Below are positions 2,553 to 36,828 of a stretch of DNA of 64,000 nucleotides, piece by piece. Made by a program: the position numbers and the translations under genes. The notes beneath the pieces are model-generated. The model did not search any database. It saw nothing but the letters and a program-made list of their open reading frames with translations, and was not told the origin of the DNA. Each line of letters begins with the position of its first letter. The first letter of the stretch is position 1. Location: assembly GCA_963695855.1 (NCBI GenBank), contig CAVOHZ010000010.1, positions 1 to 64,000 of the forward strand. The letters are read 5' to 3'. The stretch comes from an uncultured Nitrososphaerales archaeon (GTDB lineage Archaea; Thermoproteota; Nitrososphaeria; Nitrososphaerales; Nitrososphaeraceae).

Positions 2553-5020
2553 TTGAAACTAAAACTTGGTATTTTAGTAGTGCTTGTAGTAATGTCAGCA
2601 ATTTCAGGATTCAATAATGGTATTATTTCAGGTGCAAATGCAGCAGAACACGCAGTGTCATTAGAAATGGGATTACAAGACGAGTCCTATCAAGAACAGG
2701 AAAATGATTACGATACGGACGAGGTTGGTTATCCAGATAACTACGGACAGGACCATGAAGGGTATTCCAGTTACAATGATTATGGATCAAGTGAAGATGG
2801 ATCTTATGGAAAGAGTTATAACAACATGGGTTATGACGATAGTAATACTTATTCTGATTATGGAACTTATTATCCACCAGAAAAACCAGACAAGAAAAAT
2901 AAGTTTACTTGTCCGGATACTGGAATAATAGTTGACAAGGAAGAAAATTGTCCTGTTGTCTGTCCACCGGGATCGTTGCTGGAGGGCCAGCTGGCAGTTC
3001 CAGGATCTGATCTGGAGCAAATATGTAACTTTCCAGACGTAGAAATATGTGCTGAAGAAACAGACTTGGCAGGACTTTTAGTTGCAGATACAGATGGTAA
3101 TAATGATGGTCTGGAAGAAGCCTGTGTCATTCGAACTCATGTCCAGAGGGGACGGCACTTGAAGGGTTTAGTGCTTAACTTTACTCAATTTAATACAGAT
3201 GACACGCGATCCAACGACCCGGTTGCCAGATAGGATATTCTGATATCTGCCATAAACGGCCTTGAAAAGTGTCCACCAGGAACGCCACAGTCAGGACACT
3301 TTGTAATGGGTGACGGTGACTTGACAACAACTGTACCCGATGACACGATGCTTACAAGAATCTGTAACGCTGATGGTGACCAGGCCGAGGTATGTCCCGA
3401 GAGAACCGATCTAGCCGGAGTACTAGTAGAGAATGCACCTGAAGACTGTGTATTGAACTCCTGTCCAGAAGGAACGGCACTTGCAGGTGTAGTGCTTAAC
3501 TTTACTCAATTTAATACAGATCATACGGGTCCAGACGGTATGCCAGATAGGATACCTGATATCTGTACCATAAACGGCCTTGAAAAGTGTCCACCAGGAA
3601 CGCCACAGTCAGGACACTTTGTAATGGGTGATGGTGATTTGAGCAACAACTGTACCCGATGACCCGATGCTTACAAGAATCTGTAACGCTGATGGTGACC
3701 AGGCCGAGGTATGTCCCGAGAGAACCGATCTAGCCGGAGTACTAGTAGAGAATGCACCTGAAGACTGTGTATTGAACTCCTGTCCAGAAGGAACGGCACT
3801 TGCAGGTGTAGTGCTTAACTTTACTCAATTTAATACAGATGCTACGGGTCCAGACGGTATGCCAGATAGGATACCTGATATCTGTACCATAAACGGCCTT
3901 GAAAAGTGTCCACCAGGAACGCCACAGTCAGGACACTTTGTAATGGGTGATGGTGATTTGAGTACAACTGTACCCGATGACCCGATGCTTACAAGAATCT
4001 GTAACGCTGATGGTGACCAGGCCGAGGTATGTCCCGAGAGAACCGATCTAGCCGGAGTACTAGTAGAGAATGCACCTGAAGACTGTGTATTGAACTCCTG
4101 TCCAGAAGGAACGGCACTTGCAGGTGTAGTGCTTAACTTTACTCAATTTAATACAGATGATACGGGTCCAGACGGTATGCCAGATAGGATACCTGATATC
4201 TGTACCATAAACGGCCTTGAAAAGTGTCCACCAGGAACGCCACAGTCAGGACACTTTGTAATGGGTGATGGTGATTTGAGTACAAATGTACCCGATGACC
4301 CGATGCTTACAAGAATCTGTAACGCTGATGGTGACCAGGCCGAGGTATGTCCCGAGAGAACCGATCTAGCCGGAGTACTAGTAGAGAATGCACCTGAAGA
4401 CTGTGTATTGAACTCCTGTCCAGAAGGAACGGCACTTGCAGGTGTAGTGCTTAACTTTACTCAATTTAATACAGATGATGACGGGTCCAGACGGTATGCC
4501 AGATATGATACCTGATATCTGTACCATAAACTTCGTTACAGAACAAGATAAAGAATGTCAAATATGTGCTACTAGGGCATTAATGCCCTTTACCGGAAAT
4601 CCCTTATCGGAAGTTAATGTCAGACTTGACGCCATTACTAGTCAAACTACCGACGCGCTCGGTTTAACTGCATTGTGCGAATTGGAGGGCCAAGATTTAA
4701 GAGACGAATGGTGTGATAGTGTTGCTAACGATACTAATGATAACTTCGACGATTCAAATGAAATATTCAACGATTGTCTAGACGCAGCAGGATTTGGAGG
4801 AGATTTCCCCACTGAAGGTGAATGCATTACAGGTTTGACAGCCGGCAATGTTGAAAGTCAATCTAGCGCCAGCGACTCTGCACTTCAAACCAGCAGTAGC
4901 AACATGCAGCCCAATAACCTAGAGTCACAGAAATTCAATCAAAACGTAGAAGTAAACAAAAACATGGAACAACCAAAGAAAACTTCAATACTTCCTTGGT
5001 TCAAGTTCAACCACCAATAA
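2553..5020 (+). CDS. Secreted Cys-rich repeat protein (gene A), split by frameshifts into ORFs 2553..3233, 3306..3662, 3667..4515, 4475..5020
   Basis: Signal peptide, Tyr/Asp-rich linker, CP..T.LAGV.V....C modules, 318-bp tandem repeat, KECQICA helical domain and tail EQPKKTSILPWFKFNHQ. The fragments join into one repeat-consistent reading. Confidence 0.85.
3130..4530 (+). repeat. 318-bp (106-aa) coding tandem repeat, ~4.4 copies
   Basis: Anchor gacccgatgcttacaagaatc recurs at 3661, 3979 and 4297 (spacing 318). The preceding copy at 3342 is 319 away, i.e. a 1-bp insertion. Confidence 0.9.
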
Positions 5021-5427
5021 TTTTTTTAACCCTCTATTTTTTTTATTCTGTATTAGTATCTTTTACTGATAATAAATAAAACTATTTTAGAACTCTATAG
5101 ATAACATTTTATAATATATTATTTGTTTTCTTTTTAATTGGAAGAATAAAACGCTATTTTTTAGGTAATACCTATTTGTTGTACTTACACATATAGATTG
5201 TAATTTCGTTTTCACAGATAGGTAACAATTTTTAATCTGCTAATAGTAAGTGGATAAAAAATATAAAAGTATCCTGTTAATAATATCTTCAGTGTTTTAG
5301 AAATATTATAATATAGAAAATGATTTATTTATCTATTATTATCTTATTTTTTTTATAAAGCTGCTTTTACCATATATAACATAAATTGCAATAATTAAAA
5401 TTTTTTTATGTTTATAGATCTTGAGAT

Positions 5428-7143
5428 CTATCCTTCTTTTATTACTTTTATCTTTTTGTCTTTCATGTTTTCTCTTTTTTTTACTATTTTTTTCTTTCTT
5501 CTCTTTTTGTTGATGTTATTGTTGATTTTATTGTTCTTCTCTTCTATTTTGAATTGTGACCTAACTGACTTTTTAGGTTCTTTAATTACGATAAAGAGAG
5601 GAATAAGCGGTAAGAAATAATTAAAAACACAGATTATAAGAATTCTTTTTATTAAATTTTTTTGTATCTGTACCTTTTCTGCATTAAAAAGCCTAGAGTA
5701 AAAATAAAGAGTCGTAACTAATGAAAAAAGAAAAACTTCGAGATTAGATTTAACTATTGCCAATTTATCTATATAAGATCTCTTTATCAATATTTTATTA
5801 TCCAAACCTTGCATTGTATCTCTTACTGTTGGATATTTGGTTAGATCTATTGAAAGACGTTCAAGATAAGTTCTGTCACCATACGGCATATTATTACACA
5901 GATCTGTTTTAAAAATATTGAAAGCCATTAGAATATCATGTTCATTTAATCCTGCACTTATCAAGTTTTCTAAAATAGAGGATACGATGGGTTGAGATTC
6001 CATTATCTTTCTTCCAGAAGATATTTCACTATTTAATAGAGAAAGTTTATCTGCCTTTTCTAAAATCTCTTTTTCAAGAGTTAGAAGAGAATACAAGCGA
6101 TCTATATATCTAAAGAACAGACTTTTGATCTCGTTTTTATTCAGACCATATCTTTTAGAGATGTCTGAAAATGCCCTCTCTAGATTTTTAATATCAGAAG
6201 AATTAAACCCGAGCCGTTCCAACTGTTTTAGGGATAGAACCATATGTTCATTTGAGTCAATCTTCGTTTCATAATTATCACTTATAGTCTTTAAATCTTG
6301 GATATGAGATTCAAGCCCCTTTATTTTTCTGGCTTTATTTTCGACTAGATCTCGGTATTCAGCTATATCTGAAAATTCGCTAAGGATTTTAAGAGGTTTG
6401 AAATGCATCTCTTGAAAAATCTTTATAACATCTATTAAAGATTCCAATACATAAATATCTATATCATTTTTCTCTAGTTCATCCTTTGCATCCTTGAATA
6501 ACGAAAAGTCTTTTCTCTCATTTTGCATCCCTTTTCTAACAGAATCTAAATCATCTTGTAAATCCTGGATCTCTTTTCCCTTTCTTTCCTTTTCCCGATC
6601 CAATTTTTGGATTTCACCTTTTTTGTTATAGATGTCTATATCTAGTTTAATCTGTTCTTGTCGTCTTTTGTTGATATATTTTGGTATTTCATTTAATGAA
6701 TTTATCTCTGGAAAGGCATTTATGACTTTCACCAGTCTTGCAATATCAGCAGCTAGTAATCTTTCTTTTTTACTTTCATTATATAAGTTTTGTAAAAAGT
6801 CCAAGAGGTGGTCCTCATCTATACATAGTTGTTTAATTAGGTTATTGATTCTTGCACCATCAACGCATTGGAGTGGCGATATTTCTGCCTTTTTTAATGC
6901 TAATGCCAATTCTCTAAGATTGGTTGCATCAAAGAGACCGATCCTATTCTGCCATTGCTCTATAATATTCGAAACTGAACCTGTGCTAATATTAAGTTCT
7001 AGGGCTATTCTATCTCGTGTCTTGCCCATCATCCATGCATCTATAACCGCTGATTTGATATGTTCTTGTGTTGGTAACCGCATTACATAAAAGTGGTTAA
7101 AAAAAGACTTATTTATACATTTATGATTCCTAAAATAGGACAA
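5428..7143 (-). CDS. N-terminal HTH + long coiled-coil protein with C-terminal hydrophobic and Lys-rich segments
   Basis: GKTRDRIALELNISTGSVSNII is HTH-like, followed by heptad-rich E/K/L segments. True start probably MRLPTQ (~7083). Confidence 0.75.
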   Translation of the reverse strand: MSYFRNHKCINKSFFNHFYVMRLPTQEHIKSAVIDAWMMGKTRDRIALELNISTGSVSNIIEQWQNRIGLFDATNLRELALALKKAEISPLQCVDGARINNLIKQLCIDEDHLLDFLQNLYNESKKERLLAADIARLVKVINAFPEINSLNEIPKYINKRRQEQIKLDIDIYNKKGEIQKLDREKERKGKEIQDLQDDLDSVRKGMQNERKDFSLFKDAKDELEKNDIDIYVLESLIDVIKIFQEMHFKPLKILSEFSDIAEYRDLVENKARKIKGLESHIQDLKTISDNYETKIDSNEHMVLSLKQLERLGFNSSDIKNLERAFSDISKRYGLNKNEIKSLFFRYIDRLYSLLTLEKEILEKADKLSLLNSEISSGRKIMESQPIVSSILENLISAGLNEHDILMAFNIFKTDLCNNMPYGDRTYLERLSIDLTKYPTVRDTMQGLDNKILIKRSYIDKLAIVKSNLEVFLFSLVTTLYFYSRLFNAEKVQIQKNLIKRILIICVFNYFLPLIPLFIVIKEPKKSVRSQFKIEEKNNKINNNINKKRRKKKIVKKRENMKDKKIKVIKEG

Positions 7144-7880: not shown

Positions 7881-7991
7881 AAATGTTAATTATTTGTGTA
7901 TTGTTTACACCTTTAAATTCTATACTAATAAATTGATAAATAATTTTTTATGGATAATATCGTATACCATAGAAAAATCTCTTTATGTTAA

Positions 7992-8888
7992 GAGCCTATC
8001 CAAAATTATCCTCCTGTAGATAATAATGCTATTTGCTAGTTGCACAAGACCTAGATAGTTCTCATCCTTCTTTTCATATCTTGTAAATAACTTCCTCAAT
8101 CTATTGTGCCATGAATTTGTTCTCTCTACAACCCATCTTCTTGAGGGATGTTTTGTAGAAAATATTCTTTCTTTTTCTCTTCTTCTGTGTCGTATATGCG
8201 GTATGTATCCCCTTTTGACCATTTCTTGTTCTACTTCGTTGGAATGATATGCTTTATCAAGACACAGATTTTGTTTCTTCTGGTTATGCTTTACTTTGGG
8301 AGATGATGATGGTCTTTTGATTAAAATATTATCAATTGTATCAATTGCAACAGTAACATCGTGAGTATTGGCAGATGTTATAACAGTTGAAAGGGGAATA
8401 CCATCTTTATCTGTAAGAATATGTCTTTTACTGCCTAATTTGCTTCTGTCAGTAGGATTAAGGCCTGTCCTCGCCCCCCTAAAGGTGACTTTATAGAGAT
8501 GCTGTTAAGTGATTGCCAGTTCCATTTGATTCCCTTCGTTAAATCATATATTTGTAGCAATCTTGTCCAGATTCTATCAAATATATCTGATTGTACCCAT
8601 TCTTGAAATCTTCTATGACATGTTGAACCAGAACCATATTCTTTGGGTAACATTTTCCACTGACATCCAGTTCTTAGTATAAACATTATTCCATCAAGGA
8701 CTTTTCTGTATGGAACAATTGGACGACCTATGGTGTTCTCCGGTTTCTCATCTGGTAAAATATCTTCAATTTCATTCCAAAGATCATCTGGAATGCGTAT
8801 GATTGTTCTAACATACTTTTTATTAAGCATTATCAGATATGATAAGAAACCAATGAGCTATATTCCTATCTATTTTTGGGATAGGCTC
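7992..8888 (-). mobile_element. IS5-family element (IS1031/IS427-like), two-ORF frameshift transposase
   Basis: Terminal IRs GAGCCTATCC(C)AAAA, 3-bp TSD TAA (7989-7991 / 8889-8891). OrfA has LRTGCQWKMLP..GSGSTCHRRFQEW; OrfB has LDKAY and RWVVERTNSWH; frames join at a G6 run (~8474-8479). Confidence 0.92.
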
Positions 8889-9154
8889 TAAATATCTTCT
8901 ATGTAAAACAATCAATATCAATTCGAAAGTACAATATTTATCTTATATTTTTGATTCGTTCTGTTAATATAGAACCTACTCCTATTACCTCTTCTATATT
9001 ATAGATGTATTACTATAAATCTTCAATAATTTTCAATAAATTTAAGACTACTGAATAGAATAAATGCTAGGATAAAAATTCCCAAATTCGGTAGTTTGTT
9101 GGAAAAAAAACCGGTGAATATTGACGAACTCTATAAAGACATTCCTCTTAACAA

Positions 9155-10286: not shown

Positions 10287-11022
10287 AACATAAATGCTAC
10301 AATTAAGCCCCTGCTTGTATATGTATACGGGGTCTCTTGCTTTTGTTGTTGTTATTTAGCTTTTAAGAATGCATGTCGTAGATACTATATAGTTACTTGT
10401 CAGGTTTCAATTTGACAAATATAAGCAATATGTTCTGAACCTAAAATAAAAGAATATGATGAACAGCAATGATACGAATTATATTTTATCAAAAAATGTT
10501 TGCAGTACCCCTACCAGATAAATCTGGATAATACTTTAGATATAAAGCTCACAAGAAATTCAAACTGTAATTGACAAGCTTGACCAGGCTATTTCTCTAA
10601 CGACCAACACAATCAATTGAAGACATGTCAAACTTTTTAGCAACCTCAACACAGCCAAACATGGAATTGGGATCATTTATTGATCTTATACCAGGTAATA
10701 CTGGTACTTCTCGTCGATAAAGATGTTATGCTCAGGTAGGTGTTTGGATAAGTTAGCATTAATTTTAGGCCGATCATAATAAGAGTAGGAACCCAAATCC
10801 TTATTCTTTTATTTCATTAATTTTTTATGCCATAATATTCTAGCCATATTTGTTCTCTTTCCAGATTGTATCTATGAATGTTTTAACCCTACCGATTTCA
10901 TATTTTACCTAAACATCTTTTCTATTCTTCTTATAGTCAATAATTCAGAATGATAAAATATTACAAGATCAGATAATGTTCCTTCCAACCATAGATATAT
11001 TAAATTCATAATTAACAATGTA

Positions 11023-11550
11023 ATGAGCAACAACAACAGTCAAAAGATAGTTTTTGCTTCTATACTGGCAGCAATACTAGCGACAGGTCTACTGGCTCTA
11101 AACCCATCGTCAATTACAAATGCGCAAGCGGTATTATACGGCGCAGATTATGACAGTAGATATTCCTATGGCGGTCAATACGGGGAACAGTATGATAACA
11201 ACAGATACGACGATAATAATAGGCACGGATATGATAGCTATGACAATAGTTATTATCCGGAACCAAAAAAAGATAAAAAAATTGGAAATGAGCAGGAAAT
11301 AAAATGTCTCAATAAGAACCTTAACTTAAATGGTCTAGATATTACCGAAATACCTCAAGACCCTACTACCTGGTCAGCAGCAAATGAAGCAGGAGTTGAC
11401 GGAACAAACGCAGCAAACACACAAAATGGTGATGGACTTGGAGATAGAATAAACTTCGACAGGAACCTCGTAAATATATGTGTCAATCTCAACTTTAACA
11501 ACCAAGAAAGAATACCGATATTAGGAGATTTCACAAGCACGTTACCATAA
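11023..11550 (+). CDS. Small secreted Asn-rich protein with Tyr/Asp linker and two-Cys NxNxN motif
   Basis: Signal peptide (NAQA), YDDNNR repeats, YYPEPKKDKK, KCLNKNLNLNG...NFDRNLVNICVNLNFNN. Confidence 0.85.
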   Translation: MSNNNSQKIVFASILAAILATGLLALNPSSITNAQAVLYGADYDSRYSYGGQYGEQYDNNRYDDNNRHGYDSYDNSYYPEPKKDKKIGNEQEIKCLNKNLNLNGLDITEIPQDPTTWSAANEAGVDGTNAANTQNGDGLGDRINFDRNLVNICVNLNFNNQERIPILGDFTSTLP

Positions 11551-11651
11551 ACATAATTTTTTTATTTTTTTATTTGGGATATCTAAATTAATTATTTTTT
11601 ATATTATCCTAGAGAAATTTAAAAATGATATGATATTTTGATTTATTTATT

Positions 11652-11891: not shown

Positions 11892-12345
11892 GATTATGGT
11901 TTGAGAATGTATTTATTAATTTTTGCTAATTTTGTATGCAAAATTAAACTCACCTATACCTCTATTTGCCCCAGAAATACTGGCGTAAATCTCTGAGATT
12001 GGTTTAAGAGTTCAAAGCGTTCAAATCGCTATCCGACCTCGACTTGTGCAGTCCATCCATAACGTAAATGTACCAAATGGTTATCATTTCGGTTCATAAG
12101 CCTAAAACCAATCACAGGATATAGTTAATTTATTGGATAGTGAATTTCTCTTTATGGGGTCAGAAAGAAAAATCGTTATACTTTTCTTTCCCTCTTTAAC
12201 ATTTAAGATATTTGTTCTGTAACATAACGCATTTTAACAGATAGTACACAGAATACTATGATTTTTTTATAGCATTTTTAGAGAATCAATATTGGTAACA
12301 TAGTATTATTCAAATTCACTATACTGTGCTTACTCAAGCTGTTAG

Positions 12346-12417
12346 GAGAATGTATTAAGAGAATGTATTAAGAGAATGTATTAAGAGAATGTATTAAGAG
12401 AATGTATTAGGAGAATG
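12346..12417 (+). repeat. 13-bp tandem repeat GAGAATGTATTAA x5 plus partial, immediately 5' of gene B
   Basis: Units start at 12346, 12359, 12372, 12385, 12398 and 12411 (partial). The paralogous leaders have one copy. Confidence 0.92.
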
Positions 12418-15263: not shown

Positions 15264-15283
15264 TTGAATATTAATAAAGTTGT

Positions 15284-24880: not shown

Positions 24881-25066
24881 AAATTTTTTGTACTGGAGGA
24901 AACATGGAATATAGCCAAAAATTATTTGCCTGTTTTACGGTACTATTCATCCTTAAAGATTTCGAAAGGAAGATATCCACATAGTTTGGAACAAAAAGAT
25001 TCAATCTTAACATCAGAAACTATCTGCTTGGTGAAATAAGTAGAAAACATAAGCTGAGCTGGTATA
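24881..25066 (+). mobile_element. IS630 3' remnant
   Basis: Reads VLEETWNIAKNYLPVLRYYS...KIST*FGTKRFNLNIRNYLLGE, matching the C-terminus of the IS630 copies at 57-63 kb; ends in a degenerate IR (gctggtata). Confidence 0.75.
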
Positions 25067-25540
25067 GTGATTTAGGAAATTATGTTAATTATTATAGATG
25101 TTCTTAAATATTGCACAGTCCGGCGGGATGATAAGGCTATTAGTTTAATGGATGATAATATAGATAATATAGTATTTATAAATACAAGCAATATTCTGTT
25201 CTATCAGATTTTCTAAATAGTAATAGACCTCTCTTTTTATATTTGACTCAGCACAGGCAAATAATAATAAAGAAGTCACATTTTAGAAAATCATAATAAA
25301 AGACATAGCTAATTTGTAACCAACATTTTTATTAAAGAAATTAAAAGTCGATATGAAGGTAGAATAATTCTATATTATTATTGAACTAACCTACTATTGA
25401 AATATTTTGCATTCAAATCATTATAACAGATTGATATATACCAATAAAAATGGTTTATTTTATGAGCGATTATTGAATATTTATTGAATCTAAGAGTGAT
25501 TCTCAATGTAGATAAACATGTCAAGTAATTTGGTATTGAA

Positions 25541-28500: not shown

Positions 28501-31500
28501 TGCACCTGAAGACTGTGTATTGAACTCCTGTCCAGCCGGAACGGCACTTGCAGGTGTAGTGCTTAACTTTACCCAATTCAATACAGATGATACTGGTCCA
28601 CTGGGAGTACCAGATGATATACCTGATATCTGTACTATCCAGGGCCTTGAAAAATGTCCGATGGGAACACCACAAGTAGGACACTTTGTAATGGGAGATG
28701 GTGACCTTACCACAAACCAAGTTACTAATATGGACCTACCTACTTTTGATGAAATGCTCTTTAACATCTGTACGGCTACAGAAGCAGAGATATGTTCCGC
28801 TACCACAGATCTAGAAGGAGTACTAGTAGAGAATGCACCTGAAGACTGTGTATTGAACTCCTGTCCAGCCGGAACGGCACTTGCAGGTGTAGTGCTTAAC
28901 TTTACCCAATTCAATACAGATGATACTGGTCCACTGGGAGTACCAGATGATATACCTGATATCTGTACTATCCAGGGCCTTGAAAAATGTCCGATGGGAA
29001 CACCACAAGTAGGACACTTTGTAATGGGAGATGGTGACCTTACCACAAACCAAGTTACTAATATGGACCTACCTACTTTTGATGAAATGCTCTTTAACAT
29101 CTGTACGGCTACAGAAGCAGAGATATGTTCCGCTACCACAGATCTAGAAGGAGTACTAGTAGAGAATGCACCTGAAGACTGTGTATTGAACTCCTGTCCA
29201 GCCGGAACGGCACTTGCAGGTGTAGTGCTTAACTTTACCCAATTCAATACAGATGATACTGGTCCACTGGGAGTACCAGATGATATACCTGATATCTGTA
29301 CTATCCAGGGCCTTGAAAAATGTCCGATGGGAACACCACAAGTAGGACACTTTGTAATGGGAGATGGTGACCTTACCACAAACCAAGTTACTAATATGGA
29401 CCTACCTACTTTTGATGAAATGCTCTTTAACATCTGTACGGCTACAGAAGCAGAGATATGTTCCGCTACCACAGATCTAGAAGGAGTACTAGTAGAGAAT
29501 GCACCTGAAGACTGTGTATTGAACTCCTGTCCAGCCGGAACGGCACTTGCAGGTGTAGTGCTTAACTTTACCCAATTCAATACAGATGATACTGGTCCAC
29601 TGGGAGTACCAGATGATATACCTGATATCTGTACTATCCAGGGCCTTGAAAAATGTCCGATGGGAACACCACAAGTAGGACACTTTGTAATGGGAGATGG
29701 TGACCTTACCACAAACCAAGTTACTAATATGGACCTACCTACTTTTGATGAAATGCTCTTTAACATCTGTACGGCTACAGAAGCAGAGATATGTTCCGCT
29801 ACCACAGATCTAGAAGGAGTACTAGTAGAGAATGCACCTGAAGACTGTGTATTGAACTCCTGTCCAGCCGGAACGGCACTTGCAGGTGTAGTGCTTAACT
29901 TTACCCAATTCAATACAGATGATACTGGTCCACTGGGAGTACCAGATGATATACCTGATATCTGTACTATCCAGGGCCTTGAAAAATGTCCGATGGGAAC
30001 ACCACAAGTAGGACACTTTGTAATGGGAGATGGTGACCTTACCACAAACCAAGTTACTAATATGGACCTACCTACTTTTGATGAAATGCTCTTTAACATC
30101 TGTACGGCTACAGAAGCAGAGATATGTTCCGCTACCACAGATCTAGAAGGAGTACTAGTAGAGAATGCACCTGAAGACTGTGTATTGAACTCCTGTCCAG
30201 CCGGAACGGCACTTGCAGGTGTAGTGCTTAACTTTACCCAATTCAATACAGATGATACTGGTCCACTGGGAGTACCAGATGATATACCTGATATCTGTAC
30301 TATCCAGGGCCTTGAAAAATGTCCGATGGGAACACCACAAGTAGGACACTTTGTAATGGGAGATGGTGACCTTACCACAAACCAAGTTACTAATATGGAC
30401 CTACCTACTTTTGATGAAATGCTCTTTAACATCTGTACGGCTACAGAAGCAGAGATATGTTCCGCTACCACAGATCTAGAAGGAGTACTAGTAGAGAATG
30501 CACCTGAAGACTGTGTATTGAACTCCTGTCCAGCCGGAACGGCACTTGCAGGTGTAGTGCTTAACTTTACCCAATTCAATACAGATGATACTGGTCCACT
30601 GGGAGTACCAGATGATATACCTGATATCTGTACTATCCAGGGCCTTGAAAAATGTCCGATGGGAACACCACAAGTAGGACACTTTGTAATGGGAGATGGC
30701 AATCTTGCCACAAACAGTGTTACTCCTGGACTTAATTTCGATTCGATGCTTGCAGCAGTCTGTAACGCTACCGATAATCAGGCAGAGATATGTCCTATGG
30801 ATACACAACTGGCAGGCGTACTCGTCAATAATACAAATCCGATGATGGTAGAACCAGCATGCAATCCATTCGAGATATGTCCAGCTGGTACAATTCTTGA
30901 GGGCGCATTGGTAACTCCTGGAAATCTAAACGTATGTGAACAGGAAAATATTGCTGCAGCTCTTGAAGGCTGTATATCCTACTGGCTATCTCTGGCTGAC
31001 GGAGCTACAAGAGTTGGTACTGTCACTGCAATAGTTGAAGGCGCAGCAGCTCTTGTACAAGGAGGCACCCTACCTGATACGCTCAATGACTATACACTTT
31101 TGAATAGCTACGATCTCAATAATAATAACATTCTCGATGCGAACGAATTTGAGTGCACTACATCAAATTCATTAGGATGTCCCCAGGAGTTTCAACTTGT
31201 AGATCTTATCGTAGAGCTACTGAACGCAGGATACACATTAGAGCAGTTGGAAGATGCCTTCAAAGCTGCTGGAGGCAATCAAGAAGATACAATAATTGAA
31301 GGAATATTCAACTGTATAGGAACGGTAATAATCGAAAATTGTGTCACAGATTCGCTATCTGGTTTATCTGTAACTAATCGAACCGCAGCAATTACCGCAA
31401 TAGTTAATGGTTCAGCACAGCTTGTAGAAGCGCCTGGCAATCCTGTGGATGATCTCGATAACTATCCACTTTTGAATAGCTACGATACGAACAATAATGA

Positions 31501-31993
31501 TGTTCTAAGTACGAGCGAGTTTGTGTGCAATGCGATAAATCAAGCGGGATGTCCTTCAGACCTCCAATTAACGGACCTTATACTGGATCTATTCAATTCA
31601 AATGCACCACCTGTACCACCTGGGGGTTACACACAGACGCAGATAGAAAATGCAATGTTAGCCGCCGGCAATAATAATGCAGATGTGGTAATTATGGAAA
31701 TCTTCGATTGTTTATCAGATCCACTCCAAACACAATCTTTGATGTCTGCATTGGTCTCTGTCTTTGAACTGCAAGACTCAACAACATATCTTTCTAATAT
31801 GAATATTGGTATTGCTGAACAAACAACAACAATGAGATCCCAGGAATCCCCTACAATCAATACAGGTATTGCTGAACAAACAACAACAACGACATCAGAT
31901 GAATCCCCTATAAAACCTCAGCATGAGTTTCGACTTCCGAACCTTCCATTTAGCTTCAACGGTTTGGGTGTTGTAAACGAGGACCCTAGATAA
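25541..31993 (+). CDS. Giant (2150 aa) secreted Cys-rich repeat protein (gene E)
   Basis: Type-B leader like gene A, shared core (25858-27079), 111-aa perfect repeats, duplicated C-terminal helical domain with EF-hand-like loops, and tail containing LPNLPFSFN. Confidence 0.93.
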   Translation: MKLKSIFLVVLVAMSTISAMSTISGFNNSLISVTNAQEYGKEIRMDGSGLSYNVIDQNSYGQNEYSSYNNYASNEYSNDYYYPEEKKVVAEIEKEDNKIFICPDTGIVVDDRINCPQKCPFNTPLEGVYVMDLDVCNTQPGVGVTCPLDTDLPGVVVTDEANCNIFGTCDASSTPLGVALGQDVKVADSALCQLSNVPNLQICEDGPFEGFAVNDQDACDTLDNVQICSLTSDLPGVFTTDPATCNIFETCDLNTPLGASLGTNVEVVDADICQLQFAVCDSDSGLARALGLTGPIVVADEQLCELEVTSGTTTCPAGSDLAGVVVTAGQADVICNLEIPQVVTCDSDSPLGEAVGQGTVQVTDVKLCELAITSGTTTCPAGSDLEGVVVLEGQANVICNLNIPTLVTCPTTSDIAGAQVTDIRICDLDNIDLIPCAAGTNNAGALVTDERLCQAPNDQNKCPPGSDLENVYVMNPDLDGACDIFEECEPDDPIFSALPAGSSTFEVVDDQICNLEIPEEIELFECDPLSNLGDGALVTDPQLCNAATPAEQCPEDSTLAGVWVHPDELATCNLVLPETCPPGTALEGVSVSNTEFCDLNGLEKCPTGTPQAGHFVMGDGNLATNSVTPGSAFDQMLFNICTATEGEICDDTTDLEGVLVENAPQDCSLNVCPDGTALEGVALSLSQFETDNDSPAGPGMGPDGIPDICTVQGLEKCPMDTPLMGHFVMGDGNLLTTEELLPLCRVPGGMVCGPSTDLPGVVVRNIATDCVLNSCPAGTALAGVVLNFTQFNTDDTGPLGVPDDIPDICTIQGLEKCPMGTPQVGHFVMGDGDLTTNQVTNMDLPTFDEMLFNICTATEAEICSATTDLEGVLVENAPEDCVLNSCPAGTALAGVVLNFTQFNTDDTGPLGVPDDIPDICTIQGLEKCPMGTPQVGHFVMGDGDLTTNQVTNMDLPTFDEMLFNICTATEAEICSATTDLEGVLVENAPEDCVLNSCPAGTALAGVVLNFTQFNTDDTGPLGVPDDIPDICTIQGLEKCPMGTPQVGHFVMGDGDLTTNQVTNMDLPTFDEMLFNICTATEAEICSATTDLEGVLVENAPEDCVLNSCPAGTALAGVVLNFTQFNTDDTGPLGVPDDIPDICTIQGLEKCPMGTPQVGHFVMGDGDLTTNQVTNMDLPTFDEMLFNICTATEAEICSATTDLEGVLVENAPEDCVLNSCPAGTALAGVVLNFTQFNTDDTGPLGVPDDIPDICTIQGLEKCPMGTPQVGHFVMGDGDLTTNQVTNMDLPTFDEMLFNICTATEAEICSATTDLEGVLVENAPEDCVLNSCPAGTALAGVVLNFTQFNTDDTGPLGVPDDIPDICTIQGLEKCPMGTPQVGHFVMGDGDLTTNQVTNMDLPTFDEMLFNICTATEAEICSATTDLEGVLVENAPEDCVLNSCPAGTALAGVVLNFTQFNTDDTGPLGVPDDIPDICTIQGLEKCPMGTPQVGHFVMGDGDLTTNQVTNMDLPTFDEMLFNICTATEAEICSATTDLEGVLVENAPEDCVLNSCPAGTALAGVVLNFTQFNTDDTGPLGVPDDIPDICTIQGLEKCPMGTPQVGHFVMGDGDLTTNQVTNMDLPTFDEMLFNICTATEAEICSATTDLEGVLVENAPEDCVLNSCPAGTALAGVVLNFTQFNTDDTGPLGVPDDIPDICTIQGLEKCPMGTPQVGHFVMGDGNLATNSVTPGLNFDSMLAAVCNATDNQAEICPMDTQLAGVLVNNTNPMMVEPACNPFEICPAGTILEGALVTPGNLNVCEQENIAAALEGCISYWLSLADGATRVGTVTAIVEGAAALVQGGTLPDTLNDYTLLNSYDLNNNNILDANEFECTTSNSLGCPQEFQLVDLIVELLNAGYTLEQLEDAFKAAGGNQEDTIIEGIFNCIGTVIIENCVTDSLSGLSVTNRTAAITAIVNGSAQLVEAPGNPVDDLDNYPLLNSYDTNNNDVLSTSEFVCNAINQAGCPSDLQLTDLILDLFNSNAPPVPPGGYTQTQIENAMLAAGNNNADVVIMEIFDCLSDPLQTQSLMSALVSVFELQDSTTYLSNMNIGIAEQTTTMRSQESPTINTGIAEQTTTTTSDESPIKPQHEFRLPNLPFSFNGLGVVNEDPR
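27845..30699 (+). repeat. 333-bp (111-aa) perfect coding tandem repeat, ~8.6 copies
   Basis: Identical antisense ORFs recur every 333 bp (28157, 28490, ... 30155); no differences seen between the translated units. Confidence 0.95.
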
Positions 31994-32827
31994 AATAGTG
32001 AAATGTAACAAGAAATTAGAATGGGTGTTTTTTTACACCAACAATTTTTTTTATTTTATTTTATTTTATTTTATTTTTTTATATCATCAAAAATTTAAAG
32101 TCTATTTCAAAATCATTTTCTTTAAACAATTATACAAATACATAATCACGAAAAACTAAGATAATTCTCTTTTTTTCATTTCATCCCATGTTAATAATTT
32201 TCTGAATCTCTTAATTCTTGTACTCGCAATTTTTTTCGGAAAGTCTTATTGAATATTTTAGCCTCAATTTCGTACATTAGCCTGTAAGGAAAACATCTAT
32301 GCAGACATAAAAATAACTGGTTTCATCCGACTCCGTTCTGGCTTATCCAAAACAAATACAGAGAATTTCCAGGATGATAGCTCTTCCTTGATAAAGCAGA
32401 ACAGAAATACAAGTGTAAAAAAAGTCTTTGATTTTTTTGATAGACATAAAAATAATTTGATACCGATATTTCTTCCAGCAAAATTTCCTAAATTTGTGGT
32501 ACTGAAAGAAATATAGAATATATCTAACAACCATCTACTATTCCGATAATATTATTCATCACTTACAGAATTCAGAAATAAATTGTACACATATTTAAGA
32601 ACAGAAAGATCTAACCTGGCGATGGGTAACTATATTTTGGATAACGTCATCAAACCTATACCAATTGATATAGATAAACCATAAAAATTACTCTATAAAT
32701 AGATAGATAGGGTAAATTTTACATTCTTATAAAGATAATATCATATATAATAGTAAAGTTCTCTTTACTGAATAGTTATCTTATGAAGACCTGTACATTT
32801 TTAAGAGCACAATAAGCGATCCGTTAC

Positions 32828-33460
32828 GTGAATGCTATATTATTCGTTTTATCAATAGCAATAATCGTATCTGTATTCCCTTTATTTACAACAGGTGCGA
32901 ATGCCCAATGGACAATACCTTCCCAGGACCTGAGCCAAAACCAAAACGTAAAGACTTCTACCTATGAAAATAGTGATTCAAGCATCAAGATAGATTATCC
33001 CTCTGATTGGTACTATCTTGAAAAATCAGGTTCAGATATAGAGTTCTATCCATCGACAGCGGCAGCAGCATCTGGAACGACACCAGCAACTGCAGGCGCT
33101 GCAACAACAACAGGAGGCTCTACAACTGGACAATCAGACGCAACCATAAAACTGACTGTAACACCTCTTAACTCAAATCCTGTTTCAATAAATTCCATCG
33201 TAGATGAAACTTTAAAGGATAAAAGCAAAACACTTGAAAATTTCTTATTACTTGATTCTGCCATTATTCCGGATTCTAAAGATAAAGTAACACAAAAACT
33301 AATCTATTCTTATACTGGACCAGATAATTCAAAGATTGTTCAACTAGATTATGGAACTATTAAAGACAACAAATTGTATCTTTTGTCCTTTATTGCAGAT
33401 ACAAAAAAATTCTATGATTATGTTCATGTAGCAGATAGCAATGATGGCTTCTCTAAGTGA
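32828..33460 (+). CDS. Secreted PsbP-like domain (probably the N-terminal half of a fusion with the next ORF)
   Basis: Signal peptide, TYENSDSSIKIDYPSDW and IKDNKLYLLSFIAD motifs typical of PsbP-like folds; 20-bp overlap with next ORF. Confidence 0.7.
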   Translation: MNAILFVLSIAIIVSVFPLFTTGANAQWTIPSQDLSQNQNVKTSTYENSDSSIKIDYPSDWYYLEKSGSDIEFYPSTAAAASGTTPATAGAATTTGGSTTGQSDATIKLTVTPLNSNPVSINSIVDETLKDKSKTLENFLLLDSAIIPDSKDKVTQKLIYSYTGPDNSKIVQLDYGTIKDNKLYLLSFIADTKKFYDYVHVADSNDGFSK

Positions 33461-34073
33461 TTATACAAAACAAGCAGCTTTATCTAAATATATACCGCAA
33501 CTATTAAATCCAGTCTCTGATATGGTAAAACCTCTTGGAGATCCAAATGCCGATGTCACCTTAGTTGAATTTGCAGATTATAGGTGTCCTTTCTGTGATA
33601 AGTTTCATAAAGAATCTTTTGATAAAATAAAGACAAACTTTTTAGATACTGGAAAGGTGAAATTTGTGTTTAAAGATTTTGTTGTAAACGACAGGGGAGA
33701 ATATAAAGGATCAGCGCAGGGATCAATAGCAACTTATTGTGCTGCTGAACAGGGCAAATATTGGGAACTTTCAAATGAGATATTTAAAAATTTTAAACCA
33801 GAACCACAGCATTGGATTACTATAGACTCTCTAACACAATTTGCAAAGAATATACAGATTCAGGATATTGAGAAATTCAAAAGTTGTGTAGAGTCTAACA
33901 AATACAATGATATTATACAAACAAACAAAATACTTGCAGCAAGTCTCGGTCTGACTGGGACTCCTTCCTTTGCAGTCCTCAAAGGTGATAAACTTCAGAC
34001 CATCCTGCCTGGAGCAATTCCATACCCGGTCTTTGAAAGTACTTTAACTGCTTTAAGTGCTTTACAAGGATAG
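33441..34073 (+). CDS. DsbA-family (thioredoxin_4) disulfide oxidoreductase domain
   Basis: LGDPNADVTLVEFADYRCPFC, CAAEQGKYWE and cis-Pro GLTGTPSF. Confidence 0.9.
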   Translation: MMASLSDYTKQAALSKYIPQLLNPVSDMVKPLGDPNADVTLVEFADYRCPFCDKFHKESFDKIKTNFLDTGKVKFVFKDFVVNDRGEYKGSAQGSIATYCAAEQGKYWELSNEIFKNFKPEPQHWITIDSLTQFAKNIQIQDIEKFKSCVESNKYNDIIQTNKILAASLGLTGTPSFAVLKGDKLQTILPGAIPYPVFESTLTALSALQG

Positions 34074-34372
34074 TACTTTTTTTTATTTTCATTTTTTGGA
34101 TACAAAAATAATATTTTTCTAATAATGGTAATCAATTCATAAAATTAAGAAGAGAGAATTAATAGAGAATTATATTATATAACAAAAATAAGATATATTG
34201 AAATATATAATATATCGAGATGTTATATAAGTACCATAGTTAATACAAAATAATTATTATTTTTTTTACTTAATAGAAACTTTACTAAATAACTATAATA
34301 AAAAATCAGACTATAATATGTATATTATAATCCTGCAAACTTCTGAAATATTAAAACATTACAAATCTGATC

Positions 34373-36828
34373 ATGCACAAGTCAGTAATAAAGGTAGTAT
34401 TCTTGGCAGCCATTTTGATCGCTGGTACAATTACTATCGCATCACCGAGCCTAATAGATGATGTTCAAGCTTCCAGCGACAAAAAGGATAAGAAACGAGA
34501 TTCTCATGATAGAGATGATAAACAAAGAGATTCTCATGATAGAAAAGATAAAAAGAATCCATATGATCCTTATAAGAAGTCATATAATGACAGAGATCCG
34601 TACATGAAAGATCAATATGCCCAAGATCCCTACAAGAAATCATATGATGACAGCAAATCATACCAAAAAGACCCATATGCTAAAGACCCATATTCTAGTG
34701 GAGATCAATACAAAAAAGACCCATATGCTAAAGACCCATATTCTAGTGGAGATCAATACAAAAAAGACCCATATCCAAAAGATGACTATATGAAATCATA
34801 CGAAGACCCATACAAGAAATCATACGAAGACCCATATGCTAAAGACCCATATGCTAAAGATGATTCATGAAACATATGATGACCAAAAATCATACCAAAA
34901 AGACCCATATGCTAAAGACCCATATTCTATGAAACGATATGATGACCAAAAATCATACAAAAAAGACCCATATGCTAAAGACCCATATTCTAGTGGAGAT
35001 CAATACAAAAAAGACCCATATCCAAAAGATGACTATATGAAATCATACGAAGACCCATACAAGAAATCATATGAAGACCCATACAAAAAACCATATGAAG
35101 ACCCATATTCTAGTGGAGATCAATACAAAAAAGACCCATATGCTAAAGACCCATATTCTATGAAGACCCATACAAGAAATCATACGAAGACCCATATGCT
35201 AAAGATGATTCTATGAAACGATATGATGACCAAAAATCATACCAAAAAGACCCATATGCTAAAGACCCATACAAGAAATCATACGAAGACCCATACAAGA
35301 AATCATACGAAGACCCATACAAGAAATCATACGAAGACCCATACAAGAAATCATACGAAGACCCATACAAGAAATCATACGAAGACCCATACAAGAAATC
35401 ATACGAAGACCCATACAAGAAATCATACGAAGACCCATACAAGAAATCATACGAAGACCCATACAAGAAATCATACGAAGACCCATACAAGAAATCATAC
35501 GAAGACCCATACAAGAAATCATACGAAGACCCATACAAGAAATCATATGATGACAGCAAATCATACCAAAAAGACCCATATGCTAAAGACCCATATGCTA
35601 AAGACCCATATGCTAAAGACCATCTTATGGAAGTGATCAATACCAAAAAGACCCATATGCTAAAGACCATATGCTAAAGACCGATATGCTGAAAGAATCA
35701 TACCAAAAAGACCCATATGCTAAAGACCCATCTATGCATAGATGACCCATATACTAAAGACCCATATGCTAAAGACCAATCTTATGGAAGTGATCAATAC
35801 AAAAAAGACCCATATGCTAAAGACCCATATGCTAAAGACCAATCTTATGGAAGTGATCAATACAAAAAAGACCCATATGCTAAAGACCCATATGCTAAAG
35901 ACCATATGACGGAAGAGATCAATACAAAAATAGATCCATATGCCAAGAGATGACTCATATGAAATCATATTATGACCAATACAAGAAACCATATGACGGA
36001 AGAGATCAATACAAAAATAATCCATATCCAAGAGATGACTATATGAAACCACATGATGATCCATACAAGAAACCATATGACGGAAGAGATCAATACAAAA
36101 ATAATCCATATCCAAGAGATGACTATATGAAACCACATGATGATCCATACAAGAAACCATATGACGGAAGAGATCAATACAAAAATAATCCATATCCAAG
36201 AGATGACTATATGAAACCACATGATGATCCATACAAGAAACCATATGACGGAAGAGATCAATACAAAAATAATCCATATCCAAGAGATGACTATATGAAA
36301 CCACATGATGATCCATACAAGAAACCATATGACGGAAGAGATCAATACAAAAATAATCCATATCCAAGAGATGACTATATGAAACCACATGATGATCCAT
36401 ACAAGAAACCATATGACGGAAGAGATCAATACAAAAATAATCCATATCCAAGAGATGACTATATGAAACCACATGATGATCCATACAAGAAACCATATGA
36501 CGGAAGTAATACCTCTGACAATCATCAAAAAACATCAATCTATTCAATGGGGGATAGCACTACAAAAAAGACCGACAAAACATTGTCGACCAGCTTGAGT
36601 GATTATCTAAAGGGCGATGGTTCTAAATCTCAACCTACAAAAATGTCAGTAGACAAAAATAACATCGTGAAAAATACAAAAATGTCAGTAGACAAAAATA
36701 ACATCGTGAAAAACTCATCTTTAAAGAAAAGTAGCAACAATTCACCGAAGCATATTGTCAAAAACAATGTGGAAACTCCAGGATCATCTTCGATAAACGT
36801 ACCCTCAATGTTATCACTAGGGCCCTAA
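34373..36828 (+). CDS. Giant secreted Tyr/Asp/Pro/Lys repeat protein (KDPY / YEDPYKKS), broken into several frames
   Basis: Signal peptide (VQA-S). The same repeat vocabulary continues through ORFs 34373, 34836, 35213, 35717 and 35950; Ser/Lys/Asn tail followed by a T-tract. Confidence 0.82.
35264..35548 (+). repeat. 24-bp perfect tandem repeat (DPYKKSYE) x~12
   Basis: gacccatacaagaaatcatacgaa repeated head-to-tail. Confidence 0.92.
35976..36506 (+). repeat. 84-bp perfect tandem repeat (DDPYKKPYDGRDQYKNNPYPRDDYMKPH) x~6
   Basis: 28-aa unit repeated in ORF 35950..36828. Confidence 0.92.

Follow-up and report, generated by a model that had tools for sequence, protein, structure and literature searches.

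Five related loop-protein genes, designated A to E, were found on one strand (plus) in the 64,000-nucleotide stretch of DNA from a soil ammonia-oxidising archaeon analysed here (the window), and D and E are the only ones intact in the assembly sequence. The five genes probably represent a lineage-restricted family of adhesin-like stalk proteins, encoded in an array of paralogs that is duplicating, gene-converting and decaying, and not a programmed combinatorial system. In a self-comparison of the window, all the cassettes assigned to A-E by the original prediction were recovered in place and above chance. The features of the region are:

1270-1692, second remnant of the 'F-family', upstream of A.
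2338-2552, plus strand, upstream block of A, homologous to the upstream block of E at 25325-25540 (65%; z = 12.4).
2553-5020, plus strand, gene A, an apparent pseudogene by frame reading, leader B with TTG start.
3117-4531, plus strand, 318-bp tandem repeat of A (106 aa, 6 Cys), 4.4 copies (96% matches, 1% indels).
7982-8891, minus strand, IS element between A and B (DUF4096-type transposase fragment; Pfam and self-match).
11023-11550, plus strand, 'F-family' gene upstream of B, small and secreted, in truncated form (1137-1723 against 10891-11575, 80-82%).
12342-12417, plus strand, 13-bp tandem repeat, 5.8 copies, 43-118 nt upstream of the likely B start (repeat search).
12460-13902, plus strand, gene B, leader A, stop ahead of the tail (listed ORF start 12415; likely start 12460).
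14010-14088, plus strand, tail-cassette remnant behind the B stop codon (similarity to the A and D tails).
15284-18372, plus strand, gene C, leader A, 5' frameshift (ORFs 15284-15610 and 15598-18372).
15830-15882, plus strand, gene-conversion patch in C, where C equals B and D equals E.
19684-21954, plus strand, gene D, intact, leader A (listed ORF start 19639).
21955-22210, plus strand, 3' flank of D, common to A (sequence match).
22999-23895, plus strand, IS5-type DDE transposase between D and E (Pfam DDE_Tnp_1, 5.6e-26).
25541-31993, plus strand, gene E, intact, leader B with TTG start, 2150 aa (6.4-kb open frame).
27844-30715, plus strand, 333-bp tandem repeat of E (111 aa, 6 Cys), 8.6 copies (repeat search).
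30947-31717, plus strand, helical 'head' of E in duplicate, EF-hand-type loops at 31112-31150 and 31484-31522 (two pattern matches).
32828-34073, plus strand, PsbP-like–DsbA fusion gene, frameshift near 33437 (ORFs 32828-33460 and 33441-34073).
34373-36828, plus strand, Tyr/Lys/Asp/Pro-rich repeat gene region, signal peptide at 34373 (repeats of 24, 48, 63 and 84 bp).

The encoded proteins follow the order export signal, low-complexity linker rich in Tyr, Asp, Asn and Gly, loop chain and distal C-terminal module, the signal-type N-termini and linkers being judged by reading of the translations. Each protein contains 10-30 loop units, in which a stretch of 15-24 residues lies between two cysteines, joined by connectors of 5-10 residues. 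The Cys spacing switches regularly between long and short, and the Cys counts are even (24 in B, 44 in C, 110 in E and, after the likely start, 40 in D); with a unit HMM, 17 units were detected in D, and E gave 23. The loop proteins have a pI of about 4.05 and contain about 5% Cys. The distal module can be a YVTN propeller, a head resembling an EF-hand, or a 4-Cys domain followed by a Ser/Thr-rich tail that closes with the conserved motif LP(L/W)FxFN. The variable length and variable tip that had been proposed were indeed found in these signal-peptide-bearing, Cys-rich modular proteins. The spacing and parity of the cysteines suggest a 'disulfide-closed loop' and an 'extended stalk', and the sequence features point to an extracellular location and a role as stalk or adhesin. 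The loop proteins would first be exported by the Sec pathway, and their cysteines would then be oxidised by the general DsbA-type proteins of the cell. The looped units would form an extended stalk or fibre, which would keep a binding, possibly enzymatic, head off the cell or inside a biofilm matrix.

The loop core was described earlier as new, and this description held: no covering match was found in Pfam (no family even at E<=10), NCBIfam, PDB sequences or the ESM Atlas, and 71 of 1.84 billion cluster representatives matched the core at E<=1e-3. Among 30 relatives scanned, picked by length out of 108, FG-GAP modules were present in seven, YVTN/lactonase-type propellers in three, an N-terminal collagen stretch in three and a weak BNR match in one, and no family was recognized in 16; the longer homologues had propellers in four of four. 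Metagenome proteins independently show C-like, D-like and E-end architectures. Within one Nitrososphaeraceae genus, 5 of the 21 genomes searched contained the family; among 129 genomes from 17 sister genera, none did. Since 16 of the 21 genomes of the genus gave no family hit, the family is not a core envelope component. It appears to be both lineage-restricted and uncatalogued.

In gene A, leader B and a Tyr-rich linker are followed by a small number of loops and by the 318-bp repeats (76% identical to the 333-bp repeat of E); the 4-Cys domain begins at 4550, and the tail closes with LPWFKFN. The reading of A changes at least five times among three frames and meets one stop (frames 0/2/0/1/0/1/2; ORFs 2553-3233, 3306-3662, 3667-4515 and 4475-5020). 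Gene B has a Tyr-rich linker with a 75-bp duplication, followed by 10-11 loops that match the first half of the core of C, D and E at about 85% identity. A tail-like peptide with an LPLF motif is encoded downstream of its stop, where the remnant aligns with A 4967-5044 at 73% identity (E 2e-6) and with D 21903-21938 at 78%. Gene C is composed of leader and linker (15284-15610), core (15598-17157), 4-Cys domain (17158-17457) and YVTN beta-propeller (17458-18369; TIGR02276 at 3e-38 in five stretches, Pfam Lactonase at 2.3e-6), with the frameshift in the Gly/Tyr linker. In D, a Tyr-rich linker (19855-20016) leads into 17-18 loops (20017-21579); the 4-Cys domain spans 21580-21801, and the tail, rich in Ser, Thr and Pro, spans 21802-21951 and ends in IPLFNFN. 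The C-terminal motif is confined to A, D and E among 6707 genome ORFs. In gene E, leader B and the linker come before the core common to C and D (25808-27080); loops specific to E and diverged repeats follow (27081-27843), and after them come the 333-bp repeats, head and tail. Eight full repeat copies (27844-30507) show 0 pairwise differences in the assembly sequence. The head of E matched EF-hand_7 (5.6e-4) and EF-hand_6 (6.9e-4), both under the Pfam cut-offs, and has four homologues.

Each leader type had been noted to travel with its own upstream DNA, and two such groups, A/E and B/C/D, were obtained. The score of the A and E upstream regions was reached by 0 of 200 mononucleotide shuffles, with 65% identity over 278 bp between 2338-2607 and 25325-25595. 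The pairs B-C, B-D and C-D gave z = 17-75, and all six between-group pairs were non-significant in the shuffle test. The TTG starts predicted for A (2553) and E (25541) are both present. The 13-bp unit repeated upstream of B occurs as a single copy in C and D.

A stretch of about 1.17 kb, bounded by sharp breakpoints, is almost the same in genes C, D and E. The match was 92% between C 15016-17240 and D 19420-21662, 97.7% between C 15601-16883 and E, 98.3% between D 20004-21299 and E, and about 85.5% between B 12730-13793 and each of C, D and E. The tail and 3' flank said to be common to A and D were confirmed at 79% (A 4936-5266 against D 21873-22210), and the first 50 bp or so of this flank, including a T8-9 run, are also found in E (32028-32077) and in the B remnant. 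Within C 15646-16814, differences from D and E are limited to one 53-bp patch and one further site. In a recombination check of this patch, 14 of the 111 informative sites grouped C with B; all 14 were contiguous, and so long a run occurred in 0 of 100,000 permutations. Two breakpoints, D 21286 and D 21487, lie directly behind Cys549 and Cys613. The dS value was 0.012 for D-E versus 0.36 for B-D, and the B-D core had a dN/dS of 0.30 over 323 codons. The relatives P0002, P0003 and P0005 were 92-100% identical (mostly 96-100%) to D residues 126-325 and 52-88% identical beyond them. In the syntenic stretch of genome G012, one family gene lies between the same flanking genes, and it is disrupted.

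These comparisons show that the array grew from one to five genes in this lineage by duplication. Its genes exchange segments through unequal crossing-over and gene conversion, and the junctions lie directly behind loop cysteines. The internal tandem repeats are expanding, and the array is decaying. Because three of the five copies and the sole G012 gene are disrupted, these strains may be losing the family or may be able to do without it. The mix-and-match appearance is probably a side effect of homologous recombination between repetitive paralogs in the course of evolution, with no programmed switch; shuffling and copying of this kind between genes is an ordinary process. The proposal of a recombination-diversified locus stands in part: cassettes have moved between copies, but the programmed 'combinatorial' diversification is not supported, as recent exchanges homogenise C, D and E and only two of the five genes are intact.

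The stalk or adhesin role has one competitor of some weight. It is possible, though clearly the less favored reading, that the proteins leave the cell and serve in the matrix or as scaffolds, or that they carry extracellular enzymes (propellers of lactonase or sialidase type), instead of forming stalks or adhesins attached to the cell. Searches of the loop proteins for a membrane anchor, a sortase-type signal and a wall-binding domain found none, the composition is very acidic, and some heads match enzyme-type propellers (Lactonase, Arylesterase, BNR). Sialidases are also listed among the biofilm genes of soil ammonia oxidisers in the available text of PMC12448741. On the other hand, leader A has, by eye, a long hydrophobic stretch that could remain in the membrane, and many heads are FG-GAP or YVTN propellers, typical of binding proteins; none of these points decides between the two readings.

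The window does contain the predicted same-strand followers, a thioredoxin/DsbA-type ORF (33441-34073; Pfam Thioredoxin_4 at 1.1e-29) and the Tyr-rich repeat region, which comprises five ORFs in three frames. It is unlikely, however, that the DsbA-type gene, perhaps together with the Tyr-rich gene, is a co-inherited functional partner in the folding of the loop proteins. Such a partnership would agree with the common strand and short distance (E ends at 31993, and the fusion starts at 32828), with the order of loop gene, PsbP-DsbA and Tyr-rich gene retained in G012, and with the closest orthologues of the window fusion copy (72-100% identity) being those of G012 and G017, both with loop-family hits; but this co-occurrence is confounded by the kinship of both genomes to G000, and in G012 the loop gene and the fusion lie about 10.7 kb apart, with unrelated genes between them. 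The adjacent disulfide catalyst is not supported as a part of the system, as the 'DsbA gene' is the rear half, with a CPFC motif, of a frameshifted fusion whose front half (32828-33460) holds the signal peptide and the PsbP-like part. The frameshift leaves the DsbA half without an export signal; in the syntenic G012 locus the fusion is a single 393-aa ORF, and the Tyr-rich gene there shows frame changes too. Fusions of this type occur in 25 of 25 genus genomes, including all those lacking loop-family hits, and since most of the 25 are without the loop family, the fusion is not a dedicated partner. Moreover, G000 has seven DsbA-type places and two intact fusion paralogs elsewhere, and the window copy is the sole split one.

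Cassette-based antigenic variation is known from Neisseria pilE/pilS and Borrelia vlsE. An archaeal counterpart, in which D and E would be expression genes and the broken A, B and C donor cassettes changing stalk and tip, is very unlikely here. As in those systems, intact genes adjoin disrupted homologous copies and conversion is segmental. In favor of the counterpart, the two intact and three disrupted genes are on one strand, conversion has left a demonstrable tract in C, junctions coincide with unit boundaries, and the distal part of the core differs across relatives. However, A, B and C retain leaders and their own upstream DNA, like decayed complete genes and unlike promoterless cassettes, and the recent conversions made C, D and E alike, not diverse. 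Apart from multi-copy IS transposases, no recombination-type genes were found among the 36 window ORFs scanned, and G012 has a single copy of the gene. The same modules recur in other combinations in relatives. Contigs of four public runs contained no cassette-reordering joints on D, only two short, weakly supported skips, and so gave no evidence of switching.

That the cassettes, perfect repeats and frameshifts come from collapsed or chimeric repeats and polishing errors over fewer genes is most improbable: polishing across repeats could produce the identical 333-bp copies and the three near-identical 1.17-kb copies, and frame breaks do concentrate in repetitive genes, but every copy has unique flanks, leader, linker length and distal module, the architectures recur in the independent metagenome proteins, short contigs of DNA run X2, possibly the source sample itself, agree with the D region without a single difference, the repeat-free housekeeping genes of the window and the long frame of E are intact, and the fusion frameshift is not in a homopolymer.

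A decaying paralog array of this kind has parallels in yeast FLO/ALS/EPA and Leptospira ligA/ligB, which are tandem or clustered adhesin gene families undergoing ectopic recombination and changes of repeat number. Like these, the array has a homogenised stalk, diverged ends, variable intragenic repeats, pseudogenes and gene conversion tracts; unlike them, its host is archaeal, its unit is an uncatalogued two-Cys loop and not an Ig-like or Ser/Thr repeat, no anchor was identified in the loop proteins, and the variable binding module is C-terminal. Giardia VSPs and ciliate surface antigens are Cys-rich periodic surface proteins of protists, and integrins carry an FG-GAP propeller on a Cys-rich stalk. 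The loop proteins resemble them in being putatively extracellular, with many short, presumably disulfide-bonded repeats and with FG-GAP propellers in relatives. The loop family nevertheless matches no catalogued Cys-rich repeat, its Cys spacings alternate between 15-24 and 5-10 residues, and its domain order differs, without a transmembrane tail. In S-layer-bearing ammonia-oxidising archaea, large adhesion proteins (NVIE_000940-001020 and Nmar_0455-0459) are implicated in attachment; according to the available text of PMC12448741, their genes lie beside that of a putative Ca-binding protein, and one S-layer-free clade lacks such adhesion genes. By their description, these too are large secreted repeat proteins of ammonia-oxidising archaea, whereas the loop family is confined to part of one other genus.

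Contigs from two rhizosphere RNA libraries of one study cover the coding part of D (19585-21954) with 90-99% likeness, leaving the D flanks uncovered. Coming from relatives and not from this strain, they are a weak hint of transcription. A related copy of the IS element between A and B lies inverted at 37043-37901, and the genome holds 27 copies of the IS5-type and 30 of the DUF4096-type element at >=60% length. The 'F-family' was found by tblastn at more than 30 places in the genome.

We consider it rather likely that the loop family consists of accessory, fast-evolving, exported, disulfide-rich and acidic proteins of stalk or fibre type, in which the loop chain would serve as the stalk or fibre that presents a binding or enzymatic head, and that its genes form a paralog array that would have been shaped by duplication, gene conversion, unequal crossing-over, insertion of IS elements and decay. 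Five co-oriented genes of the family lie in the window (A, from 2553; B, 12460; C, 15284; D, 19684; E, 25541). Leader A, found in B, C and D, has a Lys/Arg-rich start and a long hydrophobic stretch, by eye longer than that of leader B, which is found in A and E and has the look of a classical signal peptide; after both leaders comes an Ala-x-Ala/Gln junction. The leader is followed by a linker of 50-70 residues rich in Tyr, Asp, Asn, Gly and Ser, and then by the loop chain, in which Cys spacings of 15-24 and 5-10 residues alternate. In most units, a unit being a stretch bounded by two Cys, the motif C-P-x-G-[ST]-D-L-x-G-V-x-V...[LI]-C is present; in a longer variant a Gly-rich turn is inserted. 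There are 17-18 units in D, 10-11 in B and 23-30 in E, which has in addition eight to nine 111-residue repeats with six Cys each. Cys residues occur in even numbers and the pI lies near 4.05; 15 N-glycosylation sequons are present in E. Judged by sequence, the long Cys-Cys stretches would be disulfide-closed loops and the chain an extended rod.

The distal module of A, C and D is a four-Cys domain beginning with CxxC. A and D possess an additional Ser/Thr/Pro-rich tail ending in LP(L/W)FxFN, an end motif also present in the homologous proteins P0003, P0005, P0028 and P0105 from relatives. The C terminus of gene product C is a YVTN propeller (TIGR02276, 3e-38, 129.5 bits against a cut-off of 27.85, five stretches), which was also recognized by Pfam Lactonase with 27.5 bits (cut-off 21.7). 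At the distal end of E there is a duplicated helical head with two putative EF-hand-type loops; it gave two matches (residues 1858 and 1982) to a PROSITE-style EF-hand pattern, and in Pfam it scored 20.7 bits for EF-hand_7 and 19.6 bits for EF-hand_6, below the respective cut-offs of 30 and 25. In A, D and E the protein ends 2-12 residues after the LP.F.FN-type motif, without a hydrophobic segment, and no sorting-domain model in NCBIfam was matched that would indicate an archaeosortase-type signal. The LP.F.FN motif was rejected as a genome-wide sorting signal, as 9 of 6707 ORFs matched it and only A, D and E were plausible.

Searches of the family databases were not successful. D and B matched no Pfam family at E<=0.01, the loop core (514 aa) gave nothing meaningful in Pfam even at E<=10, NCBIfam had no model for B, D or the core, no PDB chain matched the core at E<=1, and in the ESM Atlas there was no cluster for the core and nothing usable for D. 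Homologous proteins were found by a word-indexed search (48, three of them the window's own) and by an exhaustive phmmer search of 1.84 billion cluster representatives (71 at E<=1e-3, 18 at E<=1e-30). Six homologues of the studied genes were named by NCBI, all as Nitrososphaeraceae archaeon, and a single-protein scan of the species collection gave two related loci, titled Nitrososphaera sp. and Nitrososphaeraceae archaeon. In the collection, 25 genomes belong to the same genus as the window, none of them a single contig. When whole genomes were queried with D, the family was detected in 8 of 24 other genomes of the genus and in none of 16 genomes from 16 other families of the order; queried with the core at E<=1e-5, it was detected in 5 of 21 genomes of the genus and in none of 129 genomes from 17 other genera of the family Nitrososphaeraceae.

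Heads were surveyed in 30 relatives, chosen by length from the 108 then available. FG-GAP repeats were found in seven, YVTN/lactonase-type propellers in three and a weak BNR match in one, while 16 had no match; in three a collagen stretch, one of them below the Pfam cut-off, lies between leader and loops. All four homologues longer than 1350 aa carry a propeller. By module matching, some combinations proved to be absent from the window, namely leader A with E-type repeats (P0006) and E-type repeats with FG-GAP (P0039, P0043), and a further combination in relatives joins E-type repeats to the E head (P0109, P0111, P0112). Over D residues 126-325, the proteins P0002, P0003 and P0005 share 92-100% identity with D (10 of 12 windows reach 96% or more); further on the identity is 52-88%, and D residues 326-425 are missing from several proteins. 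These module combinations, together with the identity profile, indicate that the family is built of modules throughout the gene pool, its proximal core being conserved and its distal parts variable.

The original prediction had placed a disulfide catalyst next to the loop genes. The ORF at 33441-34073 does encode a thioredoxin/DsbA domain with a CPFC motif (Pfam Thioredoxin_4 1.1e-29, DSBA 3.6e-15, both above cut-offs). The ORF itself has no hydrophobic N-terminus and hence no export signal; a signal peptide is found, together with a PsbP-like domain, on the ORF at 32828-33460, which overlaps it by 20 bases in a different frame. In the nearest relative, G012, both halves form one ORF of 393 aa (17498-18679 of L013, its syntenic stretch), and the junction in the window has one extra base relative to G012, not located in a homopolymer. 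All of the 25 genomes of the genus have PsbP-DsbA fusions, in which the two domains form one exported protein; two to three copies of full length are usual, and the source genome has two intact ones elsewhere. A dedicated system of loop proteins and DsbA partner is thus unlikely, since the DsbA-type neighbour is of a general housekeeping type and broken in the window. A search for a re-oxidising partner of VKOR type only (PF07884) gave no match in the source genome, which is 99.87% complete. The Tyr/Lys/Asp/Pro-rich repeat region that follows (34373-36828) is split into five ORFs in three frames, and its counterpart in G012 (L013 18937-19999) also shifts frame, which could be explained by decay, by hypermutable repeats or by assembly error in both. 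Synteny with G012 comprises a common flanking gene, inverted, on one side and the PsbP-DsbA and Tyr-rich genes on the other; at the syntenic place G012 has one loop gene as against five in the source genome, and its interval is filled with unrelated genes.

The proposed cassette map of the five genes was borne out by self-comparison and by Tandem Repeats Finder, which reported a 318-bp unit repeated 4.4 times in A (3117-4531) and a 333-bp unit repeated 8.6 times in E (27844-30715). The two units are 76% identical, and the eight full 333-bp copies are mutually identical. In the self-comparison, D (19420-21662) was 92% identical to C (15016-17240), and B was about 85.5% identical to C, D and E. 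The core common to C, D and E was 97.7% identical between E and C and 98.3% between E and D, and the tail with its 3' flank was 79% identical between A and D. That each leader type travels with its upstream DNA also proved correct: upstream DNA is homologous between A and E (z=12.4, 0/200 shuffles) and among B, C and D (z=17-75), and none of the six cross-group pairs stood out. TTG start codons were confirmed in both A and E. A, D, E and the remnant behind B have a short 3' element in common, which includes 8-9 consecutive T.

In a four-way alignment C, D and E were essentially identical from C 15646 to C 16814, except for one E-specific site and a 53-bp patch with 17 variable sites (C 15830-15882), where at 13 of the 17 C equals B while D equals E. 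C agrees with B at 14 of the 111 sites that separate B from D. These 14 are contiguous, and no such run appeared in 100,000 permutations; the patch is a gene-conversion tract. E departs abruptly from C and D at E 27080 / D 21286, and C and D diverge at C 17070 / D 21487; in the protein the two breakpoints immediately follow Cys549 and Cys613 of D, on borders between units. The dS values were 0.012 for D-E and 0.024 for C-D compared with 0.36 for B-D, indicating that the identity of C, D and E is recent, and the B-D dN/dS of 0.30 indicates purifying selection on the core. Just upstream of B, at 12342-12417, a 13-bp unit is repeated 5.8 times that is present as a single copy in C and D; this repeat in the presumed promoter or 5' leader of B could change expression. 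Antisense to the identical repeats of E there are a 1037-aa ORF (27598-30711, minus strand) and a ladder of 76-aa ORFs, most simply explained as a by-product of the stop-free opposite strand of the repeat unit.

As read in the assembly, the intact genes are D (771 aa) and E (2150 aa) alone. Gene A runs through frames 0/2/0/1/0/1/2 and has one in-frame stop. C has a frameshift in the GGA-rich stretch of the linker, and for this reason its long ORF starts without a leader. In B a stop is followed about 110 bases downstream by a tail remnant with 73-78% identity to the tails of A and D, in which the LPLF-type end is still encoded. The single loop-family gene of G012 is also frame-broken, just before the four-Cys domain.

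It had been proposed that the locus is diversified combinatorially. A programmed cassette system, in which cassettes are exchanged to generate variants, appears very unlikely: the broken copies are complete genes in decay, and the recent exchanges make the copies alike rather than different. Silent donors of the pilE/pilS type, lacking promoter and 5' end, were not found, as A, B and C each have a leader and a matching upstream block. No reverse-transcriptase family of a diversity-generating retroelement was present among the 36 larger ORFs of the window scanned with Pfam. The anti-phage defence models of PADLOC gave no family for B, D, E or the DsbA ORF, and among the 10 proteins scanned only two weak matches, to an NTPase and a TPR protein. 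In the assembled contigs of four public runs on D no joints of cassette reordering were seen; there were two skips, of 92 and 109 bases, both weak. The public runs contained no more than 0.21 of the sampled words, and neither uncovered parts of the D region nor depth of cover count as evidence here. Mis-assembly behind the shared cassettes is unlikely; the housekeeping genes of the window are intact and the 6.4-kb frame of E is open, which speaks against an assembly with errors throughout. Two rhizosphere RNA libraries of one study gave contigs that covered the coding part of D (19585-21954) with 90-99% likeness, without the flanks, and the IS element adjoining D was covered by DNA runs. The RNA-library contigs derive from relatives and are a hint of expression only, no proof of transcription.

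The layout of signal and Tyr-rich linker is not peculiar to the loop family. With a strict threshold (signal-like N-terminus and at least 8 Tyr within 40 residues), about 27 ORFs were found genome-wide, a few of which are wrong-frame reads of repeats. In these ORFs of the source genome the linker stands ahead of unrelated domains; it may be a lineage-wide linker or anchoring device. The layout is also present in the F-family, a family of small secreted proteins with more than 30 places in the genome, which adjoins loop genes at three loci. The features concerned are:

1270-1692: F-family copy in the window
11023-11550: F-family copy in the window
G000:C10:1687108-1689042 (7109-9043 of L014, a stretch of contig C10 of the source genome): F-family / loop locus
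42078-43481, plus strand: secreted collagen-triple-helix protein (Pfam Collagen, 5.3e-24)

The F-family gene G000:C10:1688032-1689042 is fused to loop units and encodes two pairs of Cys loops and a further C-terminal domain. The F-family matched no Pfam family, and in the ESM Atlas its protein gave only sub-threshold matches to hypothetical clusters of Nitrososphaerota (0.84). The collagen protein likewise begins with signal peptide and Tyr-rich linker; its Gly-x-y repeats are followed immediately by a domain that starts with CxxC, and at the C terminus there are three nearly identical repeats. Homology of the four-Cys domain of A, C and D to the CxxC-started domains at the F-family C-terminus or behind the collagen helix was unsupported: BLASTP gave E 0.48, no alignment and 0.047, hhalign gave a probability of 0.4% with only three sequences on one side, and the likeness is confined to Cys spacing and a short end motif.

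Eight multicopper-oxidase domain hits were found in the genome, and PMC12448741 reports strong multicopper oxidase expression in biofilms. One could imagine that the loop family and the Tyr-linker proteins form the kit of a fibrous protein coat of this lineage of soil ammonia oxidisers, with linkers cross-linked into the wall by multicopper oxidases, loop rods bearing heads outward, and A, B and C as a gene-conversion reservoir that re-tips or re-sizes the expressed genes. Such a coat with its reservoir is a long shot; if true, it would be the first cassette-fed surface-variation locus described in archaea.

Returning to the accessory stalk- or fibre-type family as the preferred reading, the locus is the same in kind as the recombining adhesin gene clusters of yeasts and bacteria, and it illustrates gene conversion and unequal crossing-over in an archaeal genome with textbook clarity. 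Both the family and its repeat unit are new, and they come from archaea of ecological importance; the domain grammar of the family is clear: export signal, Tyr-rich linker, loop chain and interchangeable head. No description of it was found in the literature searched, where supplementary data could list the genes as hypothetical proteins. Soil ammonia-oxidising archaea are drivers of nitrification; the construction of their surface and their attachment to particles are understood only in part. Their surface biology is under active study (PMC11559005, PMC12448741 and PMC13245735). The first describes an S-layer-free clade that has a thick wall and bears hair-like filaments of unknown composition, about 30 nm in length, and according to the second (PMC12448741) known adhesion genes are missing from this clade. 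The loop family offers an uncatalogued candidate for a surface protein of fibre or adhesin type in another, related genus; no evidence of it was found in the filament-imaged species, with no match in the 129 genomes of other genera. The importance of the family is limited, because it is distributed narrowly and patchily and because three of the five copies are in decay; it is accessory and fast-evolving, not a core part of the envelope.

The window forms the first 64 kb of a 1.8-Mb contig in a genome of 3.55 Mb with 31% G+C, in which the ammonium transporter and SSU rRNA are each encoded by a single gene. IS elements abound in it: the two IS types located within the locus have 27 and 30 copies genome-wide. 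Non-overlapping ORFs of at least 100 aa account for only about 65% of the genome. The window contains neither tRNA genes nor Rfam families. The coding parts of B-E (12865-31717) have 40-44% G+C, two housekeeping genes of the window 34-35% and intergenic DNA about 29%; the higher value of the loop-family regions may reflect their Gly/Ala/Pro/Asp/Val-rich composition rather than foreign origin. Within an island of 47% G+C, two adjoining ORFs (53347-55940, minus strand), for which no family was found, encode an extremely acidic protein of low complexity that bears a signal and contains runs of Asp/Gly, Thr/Ser/Pro/Gly repeats of nine residues and, in duplicate, a helical segment rich in Ala and Lys. 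A 571-aa protein (5428-7143, minus strand), matching no Pfam, NCBIfam or PADLOC family, is helix-turn-helix-like at its N-terminus, continues as a long coiled coil and ends in a basic tail, and its gene has two further copies in the genome at 79-80% DNA identity.
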